Assembly (NCBI GenBank): GCA_016209085.1
Contig: JACQWV010000010.1
Coordinates: forward strand, 1-60,845
Length of the DNA stretch: 60,845 nucleotides
From: Elusimicrobiota bacterium
Lineage (GTDB): Bacteria > Elusimicrobiota > Elusimicrobia > Elusimicrobiales > UBA9959
Reading direction: 5' to 3'
Each line of letters opens with the position of its first letter. Position 1 is the first letter of the stretch. Shown here one piece after another: positions 2 to 35,111 of the stretch. The notes below the pieces were generated by a model. It was not told where the DNA came from, did not search any database, and saw only the letters and a list, made by a program, of their open reading frames with translations. Position numbers and translations under genes: made by a program.

Positions 2-1633
2 CTAGTTCCTGTCCCGTCCCCTCAGAAAAAGGATGAGCTTTCCGATAGTGTACGTCTCCTGTCCCGGGGGCGATAGAGCGAGCAGTTCCCTGACTGCGTG
101 GAAATCCTCTCCGAGCGTGACAATGGGCGGTTCCACATATCCGCCTGCGCGTATCTGGGCAAAACCGGCAGTGGCAAGCAGGCCGTTGCACAGACATACT
201 CGGCCAGCTGTATTCTGCAGCCTGCCGCCCTTTGACGTAAAATCTTCAACCGGCTCGGCCGGGCACCGGTAGCCTAAATCTCCTTCAGGAGTGACATAGT
301 TGGCCTGCAGTAGCCGGATGTCGCAGACGCGTTTTCGGCCCTGATAGACCGCCTTATCGGAAATCGTTCCCGGGATTTGAGCCACCTTAAACGGAAATCC
401 GGTCGGCGATATCATTGTATCCGTTACTACAAGTTCGTTGCGCGCTGCCATCCGCAAGGCCTGAGCCCTGAGATTAGGGGCCATTCCGGATTGCCCGGAA
501 AGCGCTGCTGCCGTGCCTATTTGTATGCCGGCGGCGCCTTTGTCCAGAGCCTCTCTAAGAAATTCAGGACTGGCATAAGAGCCGGCCAGCCAAAACGGCA
601 GACCGAGTTTGTAGATGGCGCCGATGTCGGCGCGGTCGTGCTCTGTATACTTGAGAACCTGCTGGCCCTGGTCGTTAAAATGCATCTTCGCCGGTGGAGC
701 GTTATGCCCGCCCGCTTCCGGTCCCTCTACCACAAAACCGTACGGCCGGGTCGCTGGGTTGGAGGCTAATGCCCGGGCTAAAGCGAAAGATGACACGATG
801 GCCAGAAATCTCGGCCGCTTCAACTCGCCTGACTGGGGGCCGACTAAAGTATCCGGTCTGATTAAGACGAAAAACTCTCCCGATCCCGAGCGGGTCCCGT
901 GGACTTTCAGAGGCAATGACGCCGGCTCGTGGCAAGACAACCGAGCTATCATCCCGGGAAGTTCAGGCGGACTACCGGCCCCGACCACCACGTAATCCAC
1001 GCCGGCCAACATGGCGCCATAGAGCGCCCAGGGCAATGGCCTCTCTAATTTGCGCAAAAAATTAATCCCGACTAAGCCGTTGTGTCCCTCCTTGGCCAGC
1101 CAAACCTCGGCGAAGTTAGCAGCTATAGTCAGCGCCTGCGTATCTCGCTCCCACTCCCAAAACGAGGACAGTCCGGTCGTCGGCATAGCCTCCGACACCT
1201 GGGGTGGCAGAGCCGCTGTTCCGTCAGAAAAATCTTTAATGCGGTTCAGTTTCCATGTGGGCACCGGTTTGTAGGGCTTGTCGGCCGGCTTGCCGCCTTC
1301 AATGTAGTAATTGTCTATCAGCCGCTTGAGGGGTTCGGCCAGCGTTGACTGGCGTTTAGATAACTCGGCAAACGCTCTCCGTGTGTGCCCGCCCGGGTCG
1401 CCGAGCTGCAATATGCGGGCATGAACGATATCAAGCGCTGTGCCTGATACGACGCCCAGCCCGTCCATTAAGGCAACTATCCTGGCCATTTGCCAGCAGG
1501 AAACATGTACGCCCATGCCGCCGGAGATAATCACCGGGTCAGGACGATTAGCCGTCGGCATAGCCTCCGGCACCTGTGGCCCCTGAGGGGCTGTTCCGTT
1601 CAGCGCTTTTTTGTCTGATTCAAAAGGCGACAT
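2..1633 (-). CDS. NMO-family FMN oxidoreductase (nitronate monooxygenase / 2-nitropropane dioxygenase-like)
   Basis: 543-aa complete ORF. IISGGMGVHVS and VVEGPEAGGH motifs are typical of NMO/FabK-type TIM-barrel flavoenzymes. It contains two in-frame copies of a short repeat. Confidence 0.75.
   Translation of the reverse strand: MSPFESDKKALNGTAPQGPQVPEAMPTANRPDPVIISGGMGVHVSCWQMARIVALMDGLGVVSGTALDIVHARILQLGDPGGHTRRAFAELSKRQSTLAEPLKRLIDNYYIEGGKPADKPYKPVPTWKLNRIKDFSDGTAALPPQVSEAMPTTGLSSFWEWERDTQALTIAANFAEVWLAKEGHNGLVGINFLRKLERPLPWALYGAMLAGVDYVVVGAGSPPELPGMIARLSCHEPASLPLKVHGTRSGSGEFFVLIRPDTLVGPQSGELKRPRFLAIVSSFALARALASNPATRPYGFVVEGPEAGGHNAPPAKMHFNDQGQQVLKYTEHDRADIGAIYKLGLPFWLAGSYASPEFLREALDKGAAGIQIGTAAALSGQSGMAPNLRAQALRMAARNELVVTDTMISPTGFPFKVAQIPGTISDKAVYQGRKRVCDIRLLQANYVTPEGDLGYRCPAEPVEDFTSKGGRLQNTAGRVCLCNGLLATAGFAQIRAGGYVEPPIVTLGEDFHAVRELLALSPPGQETYTIGKLILFLRGRDRN
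1174..1227. repeat. In-frame short repeat, family 'GTCGGCATAGCCTCCGACACCTG', copy 1 (inside the NMO-like CDS)
   Basis: Near-identical to 1561-1613 and 3447-3552. It contains the GTCGG...CCGAC mini-hairpin and is translated as [17 protein letters not shown]. Confidence 0.8.
1561..1613. repeat. In-frame short repeat, same family, copy 2 (inside the NMO-like CDS)
   Basis: gccgtcggcatagcctccggcacctgtgg...ctgttccgttcag, translated as GTAPQGPQVPEAMPTAN. Confidence 0.8.
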
Positions 1634-2366: not shown

Positions 2367-4304
2367 TTACTTGCCGCTTCTTTTGCGGAGGGAATGGTCC
2401 AGAACTTTTTTACGCAGACGCAGGGATTTCGGCGTTGCCTCTACGAATTCATCCTCTTCAACGTATTCTATGGCCTGTTCCAGGCTGAACCGCCTCGGCG
2501 GCGTGAGGATGATGGACTCGTCGCAGGCGCTGGAGCGCATATTGGTCTGCTTTTTTTCCTTGCAGGGATTAACCACCAGGTCGTTGCCGCGGCAGTTCTC
2601 GCCGACTATCTGCCCGGCGTAAACTTTTTCGCCGGGTCCCACAAACATAGTTCCATGTTCCTGCAGGCTGTTAAGCGCGTAGGCCGCAGACTGCCCCGGC
2701 TCCTTGGCTATGAAAGCCCCGTTGCGTTTGGGCGGGGTGAACTTCCCCTCCGGCAGGTATCCGCCGAAACTGTAATTCATCAGGCCATTACCCTTTGTGA
2801 AAGCCATGAACTCGGATTTAAAGCCTATAAGCGCCCTGGCGGATATTACATATTCAAACCTGACTCTCTTGTCCTCTGACAGCCGCATATCCCTCATCTG
2901 CGCGCCGCGGCGCCCCAGAACCTCCATAACCGCGCCCTGGTATTCTGCCGGGGCATCCAGGACAAGGTGTTCCACCGGCTCCATGATAATGCCGTTCTCC
3001 GCGCGTGTTATCACGGTCATCTTGGAAACGCACAGTTCAAAGCCTTCGCGCCTCATAATTTCTATCAGTATTGCCAGATGCAGTTCCCCGCGGCCTGAGA
3101 CCTTGAACCCGCCCTTGCCCGCTATTTCCTCCACTTTAAGGCCCACATTGGACTCTGCTTCTAAAAGGAGACGGTCTCTGAGCTGCGCGGCAGTGACGAA
3201 CTTTCCGTCTCGGCCCGCGAACGGGCTGTCGCTTGCGTAAAATTCCATGGAAACAGTGGGTTTTTCTATCTCAAGCGTGTCCAAGAAAGCCGGCTCCTCG
3301 GAAGGCGAAAGCGTGTCCCCGGCTTCCACGCCTTCAAGCCCGGAAACCGCCACAATGTCGCCTGAGCGGGCTTTTTCAAGCTGGACCCGTTCAAGCCCCT
3401 TAAAACCCATGACCTGCATGACCTTGCGCGTGACCGGCGCCCGCTCCCGGTCGTCGGCATAGCCTCCGACACCTGTGGGTCGGGTGGCATAGCGCCCGAC
3501 ACTTGATGAGCCAGAGGCTCGTTGTTCCGCCGCAGTGCGGCTGTTCCGAGAGCCCATGGCAACCATCTGACCTGGAACTATCTTTCCCTGGAATATGCGC
3601 CCTATGCCGATGCGTCCGGTGTAAGAGCTGTAATCCAGCATGGTAATAAGCATGCGCAGCGGCTCTGCGTCCTTTTCAAACGGTCCGGGCACATGTTTTA
3701 TTATGGCGTCAAACAGCGGTTTAAGATCAGTCCCTTTCTTCGCCGTGTCCGTGGTAGCCCAGCCTTCCCTGCCGCACGCATAGATGACCGGAAAATCCAG
3801 CTGTTTGTCGTCCGCTCCAAGTTCCATGCACAGGTGAAAAACCTTATCAAGCGCGGCGTGCGGATCACAGTTCCGGCGGTCTATTTTGTTTATCACAACT
3901 ATGGGTTTGAGGCCAAGAGCCAGAGACTTTTTCAGCACAAAGCGGGTCTGCGGCATGGGCCCGTCCATCGCGTCCACCAGCAGCAATACGCCGTCAACCA
4001 TTCTCAGCACGCGCTCAACCTCGCTGCCGAAATCCGCGTGGCCGGGCGTGTCCACTATGTGTATGACTGTTCCGCCGTATTTCACGGAGGTGTTTTTTGA
4101 AAGTATGGTTATGCCGCGTTCGCGTTCCAGGTCAATGGAATCCATGATGCACTCACGCCCGGCGTCGTCCTTTGCCGAGATAGAGCCGGTCTGCCTCAGC
4201 ATGGCGTCCACCAGCGTAGTCTTGCCGTGGTCCACATGGGCTATGATAGCTATATTGCGCAGGTCGTCTCTTCTATTATTGCTGTTGTTTGGCGCGGCAG
4301 CCAT
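2367..4304 (-). CDS. typA: Translational GTPase TypA/BipA
   Basis: 645 aa. G1 motif [12 protein letters not shown] and DTPGHADF are present, with trGTPase architecture throughout. An extra segment of about 35 aa in domain II is encoded by the repeat at 3447-3552. Confidence 0.95.
3447..3552. repeat. In-frame short repeat, same family as 1174/1561; composite (internally duplicated) copy inside typA
   Basis: cggtcgtcggcatagcctccgacacctgtgg is followed by the degenerate second unit ggcatagcgcccgacacttg and by ...gctgttccg. typA reads it in a different frame (..TGVGGYADD..) from the frame used in the NMO gene (..QVSEAMPTT..). Confidence 0.8.
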
Positions 4305-22222: not shown

Positions 22223-23008
22223 ATGCCAGAATTGTCTGAGACGCCGGTTTTCCCTTCTTTACGCTCCAGACGCCGCTTGAGTGTTTCCGAAAAATCCACC
22301 GCGCTCCTCCCGCTTGCGGAGTTTGATTTTTCAATAATCAAAAAACACGGCTGTGAAATTCTGATAGGGGTCGACGAGGCGGGCAGAGGTCCCCTGGCCG
22401 GTCCTGTCGTCGCTGCCGCGGCCTGGATTCCGGCCGGAGCCCGTCCGAATCTTTCATGCGTGCGGGACAGCAAGACTTTATCCGCGTCAAAAAGACTTCT
22501 GGTTTTCAGAAAGCTGATATCAGAGGGAGTCAGATTCGGATTCGGCTTTGCATCAGCTGCCCAGATTGACTCGGAAAACATTCTTAACGCCACTTTTAAA
22601 GCCATGTCCTGTGCCGTTGCCAGGCTTGTAAAACATTTGGAACCGGAACAAATTAATCTGCCGGAACAGCCGCTCTGCGGCTCCAGGTGCAGTGAGCTAT
22701 GCGAACTGCCGGAAATTCTTGTTCTGGTGGACGGCCCGCATAAAATAAGGAATTTCAGTTTCAGGCAGATGCCCGTGGTTTCCGGAGACGCCAAATCCAT
22801 GTCAGTGGCGTGCGCGGGCATATTTGCCAAAGTCATAAGAGACAGGTGGATGGACATACTGGATATCAGGCATCCAGGGTACGGCTTTTCAAAACACAAA
22901 GGATACGGCACCAGAGAGCATTTGAATTTTTTAAAGGAAAAAGGACCAAGCCCCGTTCACAGGAAAACTTTTGCCCCTGTGAAAGAAAGGACGGCATGCG
23001 GCAGATAG
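22223..23008 (+). CDS. rnhB: Ribonuclease HII
   Basis: IGVDEAGRGPLAGPVVAAA and a C-terminal GYGFSKHKGYGT motif. The N-terminal start is uncertain. Confidence 0.9.
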   Translation: MPELSETPVFPSLRSRRRLSVSEKSTALLPLAEFDFSIIKKHGCEILIGVDEAGRGPLAGPVVAAAAWIPAGARPNLSCVRDSKTLSASKRLLVFRKLISEGVRFGFGFASAAQIDSENILNATFKAMSCAVARLVKHLEPEQINLPEQPLCGSRCSELCELPEILVLVDGPHKIRNFSFRQMPVVSGDAKSMSVACAGIFAKVIRDRWMDILDIRHPGYGFSKHKGYGTREHLNFLKEKGPSPVHRKTFAPVKERTACGR

Positions 23009-33071: not shown

Positions 33072-35111
33072 TCAAGGGCTGAAAGCGTCTGCGTGGTCGG
33101 GCTGAAGCTCAGTAACGGAATTTAGGGCTTTTTTTGCAGCGTTTATAAGGGCTTCAGGGGAAATATTCCGGTTTATGGCCTGTCTCATCCATTCGTCAGG
33201 CGTGATGCTTCCCAGCATGCACATCCTCGGCATTTCAGCGCCTAAATTACGGGTTTTAAAATATTCCTCAATCTGGAACGCTATTATGTGTCCCAGCGGG
33301 TAATCCGGAAGATAAAGTCCGTGTTCTATCATGTGGGAATATACGGCCAGAATCGGCGTGTCTTTTACCCCGATAAGAGGGGCGTAATGCCTGTTCCATA
33401 TTTGTTTTGCTATTGCCAGAACTGCTTTTTTCAGGGTTTCCGCATTTGCGTCCGGGCGCTTGTACATCCATCTCCAGACTTTCATGTCAACAAGAGAAAC
33501 TCCTGCTATTTCCCTTGCGCACCAGAAAGCGTCCAGCGTTTTCATGGCAGCTGTTTCTTCGTTTTCAGTCGCCGGCCGCTCGCAGCGCTCGCGGCACCGA
33601 TTGCGGTCAATGCCGCCCTGTTCCGTTATGCCCAGTATTTCCATGTCCCTGGCCTGAAAAATAAAAGCAAAGCTCTCGGTAAAAGCGGTATTCGGCACTC
33701 CTTCAAGAAGCGTGTGGTCTATTTTGCACATTGAAATCACCTGCTCCACGCAGTGTCCCAGTTCGTGCATAGCAATGTTTAACCCCTGGTAATTCATTCC
33801 GTTTCTGGTAACCCTTGTCCTGAGATGAGCTTTTTCCTCCCGCATGCCCGGCCCCCACGCGTGGCCTGAGCCTCTTGCAAGGTCCGTTTCTATTTTTGAC
33901 CCTATGAATTTCGCAAGGCCTTTTGAAAAGCCTAATTTTTCAAGAATGCGGGGTATGTCTTTTTCAAAAACCGCTGTGTCCGGATATTTCCGTGCAGTGA
34001 TTTTGTCAAGTTCTTCGGAAGAGATTTTTGAGCGGATTTTAAACCCGTCGTACCAGATGTCAAACGGTTCAAGGTTCCTGTCAAGCCTTCTTCTGATTAA
34101 TTCCGCTGTTTCCTTTCCCGTTTCCGCATCAAGCAGTTCCTCAAGCATGTTTTCAACTTCTCTTTCAGGCATTTCCCTCTGGATTTTGAATTTCCTGTCC
34201 ATGTAATTCGGAATTAAAGGGCAGTATTTGTCTTCAAGCCTGTGCGCCCTGAAAACATCCAGAAGATGTCGGTATCTTGCCCTGTCCGGCTTGCCGCGTT
34301 TTCCGTCAAGCGTGTTTGAAAAAGGTTCATAGGAATGTTGAACCGAGTTAATGAATTTCGCAGGTATTTCCTGCGCCGTTATTCTCTCCATTATTTTAAA
34401 TATGATTTGCTGCTTTTTAAGGTTTTCCCGCGGATTTGAATAAAGCGATTTTATCCTGTCTCTGAGCCCCCAGTGGGATATGAGTTTTCCTCCTGCCTTG
34501 AACATCGGCGATTTATTGCAGTCAAGGATTTTGTCAAGATAGATGTTATAGTCGGCAATGTAGTTTTCCGCCTTGACGTATGCCTGATTGATTTTCCGCG
34601 TGATTTCAGGAGGAATCCGGAACATAAATTTCTTTGCGAGCCTCGCCTGAGCCCATTCTTTTCTTGAAAACTTCACGCCGTTTTCAAGACATTCTTCCAG
34701 GTATTTAACAGGGAAGTTTAAAAGCGCCGTGAACGCTAATTTTGTCTGAAACATGTCTTCAAGAAAGTGGGCAAATGGAGCGTAGGAAGCAAACATCTGG
34801 TCAACGGGATGAGATTCGCCGGTGTCTTCGTCCATCTGGAGCCTCAGTTTCAGCATCATGGCCGTAAAATGTCCGTTTATGCATTCAATTTTTTCCTCAA
34901 ATCTCTCAAACAGAATTTCAAGGGATTCTCCGGTAAAAAAATTATCAAGGCAGAAGTTTTCAAAATCCCGGGGACTTCCGTCCCTGCCCTTCCAGAGTTT
35001 TGCCGTTTGTCTGACGCAGGTTTTTATTCTTCCGGTTTCCGTCGGATATTTATCCGCCAGTTTTTTGACGATTTTTCTAATAGCCTTTTCTTTTATCATT
35101 TTCCCTCCCAC
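33072..35111 (-). CDS. Large HEXXH-motif protein (putative gluzincin metallopeptidase)
   Basis: 679 aa. The only clear signature is MHELGHCVEQ. The family is not recognised. Confidence 0.4.
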   Translation of the reverse strand: MGGKMIKEKAIRKIVKKLADKYPTETGRIKTCVRQTAKLWKGRDGSPRDFENFCLDNFFTGESLEILFERFEEKIECINGHFTAMMLKLRLQMDEDTGESHPVDQMFASYAPFAHFLEDMFQTKLAFTALLNFPVKYLEECLENGVKFSRKEWAQARLAKKFMFRIPPEITRKINQAYVKAENYIADYNIYLDKILDCNKSPMFKAGGKLISHWGLRDRIKSLYSNPRENLKKQQIIFKIMERITAQEIPAKFINSVQHSYEPFSNTLDGKRGKPDRARYRHLLDVFRAHRLEDKYCPLIPNYMDRKFKIQREMPEREVENMLEELLDAETGKETAELIRRRLDRNLEPFDIWYDGFKIRSKISSEELDKITARKYPDTAVFEKDIPRILEKLGFSKGLAKFIGSKIETDLARGSGHAWGPGMREEKAHLRTRVTRNGMNYQGLNIAMHELGHCVEQVISMCKIDHTLLEGVPNTAFTESFAFIFQARDMEILGITEQGGIDRNRCRERCERPATENEETAAMKTLDAFWCAREIAGVSLVDMKVWRWMYKRPDANAETLKKAVLAIAKQIWNRHYAPLIGVKDTPILAVYSHMIEHGLYLPDYPLGHIIAFQIEEYFKTRNLGAEMPRMCMLGSITPDEWMRQAINRNISPEALINAAKKALNSVTELQPDHADAFSP

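Follow-up and report, generated by a model that had tools for sequence, protein, structure and literature searches.

In Rickettsia, an obligate intracellular alphaproteobacterium, palindromic elements of ~150 bp (RPEs; Ogata et al. 2000, 2002) number 44 copies, of which about half lie in open reading frames (ORFs) as in-frame fusions (PMC10969869). A second group are the repetitive extragenic palindromes (REPs), whose 16-mers overlap genes in 14 of 1,067 cases in SBW25 (Bertels and Rainey 2011, PMC3116915). Inverted doublets of this kind are called REPINs, and each family flanks the gene of its REP-associated tyrosine transposase (RAYT); IS608 has been used as comparison for the single-strand transposition of REP-type sequences (PMC3116915). 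The present work concerns the 60,845-nt contig JACQWV010000010.1 (the window) from an Elusimicrobiota bacterium (assembly GCA_016209085.1), and in it the gene typA for the translational GTPase TypA/BipA, which contains 33 extra codons. These very probably derive from the recent insertion, specific to this lineage, of a small, non-autonomous, RPE-like in-frame hairpin element, read as a disordered loop of domain II. A full-text search of the literature returned no description of such elements in Elusimicrobia. By analogy, the family resembles the intragenic selfish DNA of Rickettsia, in a new phylum and in a more extreme form.

The elements, which occur as three homologous unit types (U1 of 48 nt, U2 of 51 nt and U3 of 51 nt), have in common with RPEs that they are dispersed palindromic repeats lying in frame in unrelated housekeeping genes, that the extra peptide would be compatible with the fold, and that several families exist per genome with no known transposase. 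What was found, a dispersed hairpin repeat in frame whose site is empty in orthologues, corresponds to the functional class of RPEs. However, the units are 48/51 nt long, 95 % of their 114 regions lie in ORFs, in both orientations and in up to six phases, they are nested like brackets, and the host is a groundwater member of the Elusimicrobia represented by a metagenome-assembled genome (MAG). The Rickettsia RPE families proper are thus set apart by unit length (48/51 nt against ~100–150 bp) and by the host. With REPs, REPINs and bacterial interspersed mosaic elements (BIMEs) the units share that they are multicopy, GC-rich imperfect palindromes of very small size, that clusters form via insertion into or beside resident copies, and that the genome encodes several RAYT homologues. 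Unlike the extragenic REPs they are 95 % intragenic, and unlike REPINs they are direct or nested and flank no RAYT gene.

The extra segment in typA

The genome comprises 2.35 Mb in 140 contigs with 44.8 % GC, and its contig C4 is the window; the relatives of its typA place it in the Elusimicrobia (Elusimicrobiales). According to the ORF call and its translation, typA is free of stops over 645 amino acids (aa). Its product matches solved BipA structures (PDB chains) at E = 1e-181 and is 70–76 % identical to 18 Elusimicrobia orthologues (alignment A1), and the invariant GTPase residues are kept in an alignment with 25 orthologues. A second typA was not found in the genome by homology search: other GTPases are 37–39 % identical to TypA over the G domain, and the remaining matches are copies of the insert peptide. 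A pseudogene with an intact paralogue elsewhere, a case envisaged by the first-pass annotation of this DNA, is therefore not what the genome contains.

That annotation had reported about 35 extra residues at 3447–3552 in the region of domain II. The segment and its place are confirmed, its size and limits have to be corrected by the orthologue alignments and the empty site: it comprises exactly 99 nt, 3450–3548, and encodes 33 residues. A MAFFT alignment with 22 Elusimicrobia and Omnitrophota orthologues shows opposite to it a single clean gap of 33 columns, which holds with 25 orthologues as well as with the nearest database homologues. The insert starts after ...VAMGS, and behind it the host sequence resumes with RERAPV. 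Among 5.8 billion proteins all of the 120 nearest TypA homologues have 581–633 aa in comparison to 645 here; longer homologues gain length at the termini, not at the insert site. A homologous insertion in orthologues, likewise envisaged by the annotation, occurs in none of these 120 proteins and in none of the 25 aligned orthologues. At the DNA level no insert interrupts the site in the closest relative (88 % identity), where the sequence is GGT TCT/CCG GAG (the slash marks the site), or ...CTCCGG/AGA in the orientation of the element.

E. coli BipA, described in the annotation as having a short loop here, aligns on both sides of the insert with nothing at the site (PDB 4zcm, 5a9v). In the structural mapping, which had been proposed together with the alignment, the insert falls between residues ~243 and 247 of the E. 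coli protein, a turn in the beta-barrel of domain II. An AlphaFold2 model built from 26 sequences (mean pLDDT, the predicted local distance difference test, of 68) gives values <50 for residues 256–287, flanked by the confident strands 247–251 and 291–294 (block means >90), and the loop is probably disordered in this model.

The 99 nt are a composite, U1[U2], in which a U2 of the subtype U2a lies between the two hairpins of a U1 (48 + 51 nt; Table 1). The first-pass annotation had also seen a composite of the repeat known from the neighbouring NMO-family gene. It is the same dispersed repeat, but ggcatagcgcccgacacttg, supposed to be a degenerate second copy, forms the large hairpin of the nested U2 and is not a decayed duplicate: in four metagenome runs there are contigs in which 3477 is joined to 3529, and these represent U1 copies without a nested U2 (a skip of 51 nt). 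Base for base the insert equals the U1 and U2a consensus. The same 90 nt occur at two further U1[U2a] loci, both on contig C2 (among the loci listed), and the insert peptide is 100 % and 92 % identical to these copies. Because its DNA is that of consensus units and the C2 peptides are near-identical, there is no sign of host-specific divergence or adaptation, and the insert looks like a recent passenger.

Units, nesting and reading frames

All units follow one plan: a large hairpin rich in GC comes first, a linker of 7 nt separates it from a small hairpin, and the tail ends in TGTTCCG. U1 is composed of GTCGTCGGCATAGCCTCCGAC-ACCTGTG-GCCGCAGTGCGGC-TGTTCCG, U2 of a hairpin with an 8-bp stem, ACTTGAT, GAGCCAGAGGCTC and GTTGTTCCG, and U3 of GCCGCTCGCAGCGCTCGCGGC-ACCGATT-GCGGACAATGCCGC-CCTGTTCCG. 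In exact pattern matches over the genome the canonical length is kept without exception (U1 48 nt, 35/35; U2 51 nt, 38/38; U3 51 nt, 33/33; U1[U2] 99 nt, 17/17). Composites larger than 99 nt are again sums of these units. Conservation falls sharply at both unit ends, for U1 exactly at the first base across 30 simple copies; the boundary of U2a in typA can be shifted by one base. No terminal inverted repeats exist between the ends GTCGTCGG... and ...CTGTTCCG, and no target duplication was seen in the flanks. The host base preceding the element is G in 79 % of the copies, and the left flank ends with CCG in 31 % of U1, 59 % of U3 and 35 % of U2 copies versus 1.8 % of the background. This flank resembles the 3' end of the element itself (...TTCCG).

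A single-strand fold gives two to four hairpins per element. In the large stem of U2 pair 2 is TA in 21 and CG in 18 copies, pair 3 CG in 25 and AT in 12, and pair 7 GC in 16, CG in 11, TG in 9 and AT in 3; in the small stem of U1 pair 3 is CG in 22 and GC in 19 and pair 4 GC in 29 and CG in 11, with broken pairs being almost nil. The structural argument for the stems is carried by this covariation, rather than by folding energy. Since the elements lie in both orientations with respect to transcription, and since a T:G pair of the typA copy turns into C-A in the mRNA, the hairpins more likely act in DNA than in mRNA.

The core GTCGGCATAGCCTCCGACACCTG, a 23-mer, is present in the window at 1179, 1554 (one mismatch) and 3453, where shuffles of the window let none be expected. 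A 20-mer core has 54 matches in the genome at ≤2 mismatches and the reversed-pattern control none; the small-hairpin pattern GSSSCNNNGSSSCTGTTCCG occurs 70 times here versus 0 times in 8 genomes of genus g4. An iterative BLAST census of the genome yielded 131 repeat regions, 114 of them of ≥40 nt. Gene calls being longest ORFs, 108 of these 114 (94.7 %) lie wholly inside long ORFs in comparison to 85.7 % of random segments of the same length (p = 0.003), and 90 regions are ≥30 codons away from both ORF ends. Of about 2,180 called ORFs, 100 distinct ones, spread over more than 60 contigs, carry the elements, so that the two genes of the first-pass annotation understate their scope. In relation to the host gene 70 copies are in opposite and 38 in the same orientation, and the same element peptides are present in dozens of unrelated enzymes.

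With half-units as tokens, 99 of the 114 regions can be parsed as balanced nested brackets. The most common strings are ab (34), acdb (24), ef (20) and cd (12), in addition to cabd, acabdb, cacdbd and the tandem efefef. Both nesting directions are found, and composites therefore arise by insertion of a whole unit into the linker between the hairpins of a resident copy; once formed, they are copied as wholes.

The element is read by typA as RNS...GGYADD, whereas the NMO gene reads its two U1 copies on the same strand one base out of phase (GTAAL..SEAMPTT, and in the second a reading that includes PQVPEAMPTA), in agreement with the two frames proposed before. The U3 consensus is free of stops in six frames and occupies all six phases (6, 6, 5, 5, 5 and 3 copies). 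U1 has a TAG in one frame and occupies the other five (19, 16, 11, 4 and 2); the TAG frame, where about 9 would be expected, contains not one of the 52 U1 copies located in ORFs ((5/6)^52 = 8e-5), and U2 avoids its TGA-TGA frame. Thus no in-ORF copy sits in a frame containing a stop, and every stop-free frame is used. Complete absence of stops in all frames, for which a check had been suggested, holds for 23 of the 33 U3 copies and fails for U1 and U2 on account of the frames just named.

The first-pass annotation had considered an element selected, or filtered, for translatability. The filter is borne out by the 48/51-nt units, the location in ORFs and the avoidance of stop frames. A sequence designed or selected to be open in all frames has to be rejected, since shuffles of the units' own letters leave no fewer frames open in 50 % (U1), 59 % (U2a), 27 % (U2b) and 18 % (U3) of the trials. 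Random 51-mers at genome composition reach five to six open frames in ~3 % of trials, and the GC content of the units is 63–73 % versus 44.8 % in the genome. GC-richness together with a length that is a multiple of three explains the ability of the family to live in genes.

Probable movement of the units and other explanations

The elements appear to be mobile. Targets of insertion would be host DNA as well as the inter-hairpin linker of resident copies, which would give rise to nested composites. As every unit is a multiple of three in length and GC-rich with few stops, most insertions into genes would keep the frame open, and copies bringing a stop into frame would be lost. In typA, the reverse complement of the element would be transcribed and would yield on translation a Gly/Ser/Ala/Arg-rich loop, which would protrude from a beta-hairpin turn of domain II and leave the GTPase otherwise intact.

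Units also occur outside this genome. All 7 genomes sampled from genus g12 contain U3, the genome G041 having 65 copies of it, and in five of five g12 genomes the one copy checked per genome lies in a long open frame of 328–470 aa. U2 is present in the genera g12, g5, g2 and g3 of the same taxonomic family (in g3 as a single copy), and the U1 core is almost confined to this genome within the family sampled. G153 (identical to G002, genus g3), which holds the closest typA, has one U2-like copy and neither U1 nor U3. No elements were detected in 40 genomes of genus g4 and in 74 genomes of family f2. Near-identical units are shared with genera whose TypA is ~70 % identical, which suggests horizontal spread or a strong constraint from the mobilising machinery.

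Alternatives to an inserted element concern the reality of the segment, its origin and its use. That it represents a mis-join of the assembly at a repeat, or that typA is a decaying pseudogene, is hardly credible: the genome is a MAG of 140 contigs and no Logan contig of four groundwater-metagenome DNA runs in which the locus was found bridges 3352–3522, but in the same runs no joint skips the 99 nt either, the ORF is continuous with both flanks belonging to the same gene in phase, the insert measures exactly 33 codons at a loop, a second typA is missing, the invariant residues are kept, and the contamination estimate is 1.19 %. The elements as such are not an artefact because the same units exist in other genera of the family and in the four metagenome runs. 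Replication slippage, hairpin-templated synthesis or gene conversion between similar coding segments would dispense with mobility altogether. Such an origin, which is improbable, could account for tandem U3 arrays of two to three copies by slippage and would agree with the missing transposase link and target duplication. It does not fit the dispersal of near-identical units over more than 60 contigs and 100 unrelated ORFs, where both orientations and all phases occur, the clean empty sites in typA and NMO orthologues, the same internal structure of 99-nt composites at 17 loci, or the units shared with distant genera. Co-option, in which the 33-aa loop would give BipA a new selected function such as an altered ribosome contact or regulation, is in turn very improbable. 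The insert does lie, intact and in frame, in domain II of a ribosome-binding GTPase. However, it is missing in every relative including the one at 88 % identity, it has no structure in the AlphaFold2 model, its DNA is still that of the consensus units, and its peptides recur in dozens of unrelated enzymes.

An insert may also be absent from the mature protein. Known precedents are the hopping in phage T4 gene 60 and the GC-rich byp elements of Magnusiomyces mitochondria. With these bypass elements the units have in common that they are small GC-rich hairpin inserts in essential genes. In typA, removal of the segment from the mRNA or skipping by the ribosome would leave TypA unaltered. The element is rich in hairpins, CGG begins the insert and comes again after it, which provides a possible matched codon pair for take-off and landing, and the product of skipping would again read ...GS-R-ERAPV, compared with GS-P-ERAPV in the near relative. 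Nevertheless this explanation has a very low probability. Bypass elements may hold stops or have lengths other than multiples of three, whereas the units are always multiples of three and stop-free in frame: all 123 exact units and composites have 48, 51 or 99 nt, at most 6 of the 114 regions are potentially gene-breaking, and the stop frame of U1 is used by none of its 52 copies in ORFs. Furthermore, the two orientations (70 versus 38) leave no single RNA motif, and the CCG flank is found in just 31–59 % of the copies. Because removal or bypass would impose neither lengths in multiples of three nor open frames, the frame filter is indirect evidence of translation, and the inserts are presumably translated.

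Some observations weigh against an inserted, translated hairpin element. Folding energies are only weakly better than those of shuffles (z from 0 to −2.2). The junction codon is CCG in the closest relative versus CGG in typA, which makes the exact insertion point ambiguous. Fourteen copies lie within 30 codons of the ORF start, and with longest-ORF calls some of them may precede the true start. Translation is deduced from the frames, the public runs with the locus being groundwater-metagenome DNA only, and no filled/empty polymorphism was seen in one population, where Logan contigs break at every repeat copy. With regard to a mobilising enzyme, U-type hairpins or tails are absent from the 350-nt flanks of all 8 RAYT-like ORFs, and units of small hairpin plus TGTTCCG are absent from all 4 checked g4 genomes that have an orthologue of the RAYT on contig C47.

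The enzymes in question belong to 10 hits of Y1_Tnp (PF01797) in the genome. Five tested proteins match the NCBIfam model of the REP-associated tyrosine transposase, three of them above the cut-off, and at least 8 RAYT-like genes are present. Of these, four small genes have in their flanks another, classical REP consisting of GTAG plus hairpin. Orthologues of the C47 RAYT with 56–67 % identity are encoded in the element-bearing G041 and in six g4 genomes (56–61 % in g4); the phyletic test covered this one lineage. A RAYT as mover is not supported, the flanks being without U units and the C47 type being present in element-free genomes as well. Membership in the REP/REPIN-RAYT systems is likewise rejected, since the elements are not extragenic, flank no RAYT and do not follow the C47 lineage in their occurrence. 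An autonomous copy with a transposase between U-type ends was not found. Without terminal inverted repeats and target-site duplication the units are no MITEs (miniature transposable elements with inverted repeats). A hammerhead or other ribozyme, considered by eye on account of the CTGATGAG tail, lacks the GAAA core and would have to tolerate copies in both orientations, and the tails do not fit an attC-like integron site (GTTRRRY core), also judged by eye.

IS200/IS605 insertion targets a short specific site. With this group the elements have in common hairpins near both ends, a fixed end orientation, the absence of terminal inverted repeats and target-site duplications, and a CCG site resembling their own end. 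However, CCG is a preference (31–59 %) here and not a rule, and the likeness is itself a deduced one. A single-strand, hairpin-recognising transposition of the IS200/IS605/RAYT type with insertion 3' of a ...CCG-like site is possible and is put forward tentatively. Such an HUH/Y1 mechanism is preferred to others because of the hairpins near both ends, the fixed polarity, the lack of inverted repeats and duplications, and the flank resembling the right end. A more far-reaching and rather unlikely view would regard the units as a distinct class of "codon-compatible" mobile DNA. In this case, double-hairpin units of 48/51 nt would be moved by a single-strand, hairpin-specific machinery other than recognisable RAYTs, would prefer coding or transcribed DNA and each other's linkers, would spread between Elusimicrobia genera, and would write loops of 16–17 residues into ~5 % of the genome's proteins including essential translation factors.

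Should the inserts be translated, recent loops of 16–50 residues derived from selfish DNA would be present in ~100 proteins of a single free-living bacterium, a conserved ribosome-binding GTPase among them. This would amount to a natural large-scale experiment on insertion tolerance and a possible route to new protein segments, and what is known from Rickettsia would cease to be linked with genome decay in intracellular bacteria. The strict size of 48/51 nt, the bracket nesting and the CCG-biased flank offer handles on how the elements move. In the phylogenomics of MAGs, alignments of marker genes such as typA become inflated and fragmented by inserts of this type.

Features of the window and further copies

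Table 1 Element copies and their main host gene in the window (positions on the forward strand; U1, U2, U3 unit types)
Feature	Position	Strand	Remarks
typA/BipA translational GTPase gene, insertion host	2367..4304	−	645 aa, intact, single-copy
Composite element U1[U2], 99 nt	3450..3548	+	typA reads the reverse complement as 33 aa
U1 left half in typA	3450..3477	+	large imperfect hairpin GTCG-tc-GGC-ata-GCC-tc-CGAC, tail ACCTGTG; DNA fold
Nested U2a in typA, 51 nt	3478..3528	+	8-bp stem GTCGGGTG/CGCCCGAC, tail ACTTGAT, 5-bp hairpin GAGCC-AGA-GGCTC, tail ending GTTGTTCC
U1 right half in typA	3529..3548	+	small hairpin GCCGC-AGT-GCGGC, tail TGTTCCG; fold
U1 copy, 48 nt, in NMO-family gene (ORF 2-1633, minus strand)	1176..1223	+	16-residue gap in G153 and G041 orthologues
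U1 copy, 48 nt, GCCGTC subfamily, 5' end of NMO ORF	1551..1598	+	read as GTAPQGPQVPEAMPTA if upstream ATG is used
U3 copy, 51 nt, in 680-aa ORF on minus strand	33575..33625	+	
U1-type variant (GCAGTTCGCATAGCTCACTGC hairpin) in 262-aa ORF	22660..22706	−	

The second U1 copy of the NMO gene aligns with the region of the start methionine in the orthologues, and their likely start falls on the ATG of the element (in GGAGGCTATG). The copy may thus be part of the leader, or provide the start codon itself, rather than being an internal insertion.

Elsewhere in the genome a further variant of the left half, with the longer hairpin CCTGCCTGCCGAAGCCTCGGCGCAGGCAGG, replaces the large hairpin of U1 at G000:C26:14858-14987 and C37:3421-3504; the family thus holds more subtypes than U1, U2 and U3. 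Head-to-tail triplets of U3 (3 × 51 nt) are located inside ORFs at G000:C108:14406-14564, C47:3423-3582 and C138:32616-32772, where a peptide repeat of 51 residues results from each, the phase differing between the three (RNRAALSAIGAESAANG, RSQSSRHRLRTMPPCSG and EQGGIARNRCSEHCELP, respectively). At G000:C71:4469-4577 a scaffold gap of six N falls inside a U1[U2] copy, a case of local disturbance of the assembly by the repeats.

Two other kinds of repeat were encountered. A second REP family with TGTAG and a hairpin of the GCAGAGC...GCTCTGC type is found at G000:C36:2760-3560 and beside the RAYT-like genes of contigs C24 and C56, and one REP-like segment apparently lies in frame inside the RAYT ORF of C36 (AGGLPTAKNVATRLPSRESSHGNATATGKG). 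Between the NMO gene and typA, a different repeat occupies 1807–1937 of the window; there the depth of the metagenome contigs is ~10-fold up and several diverged contigs align.

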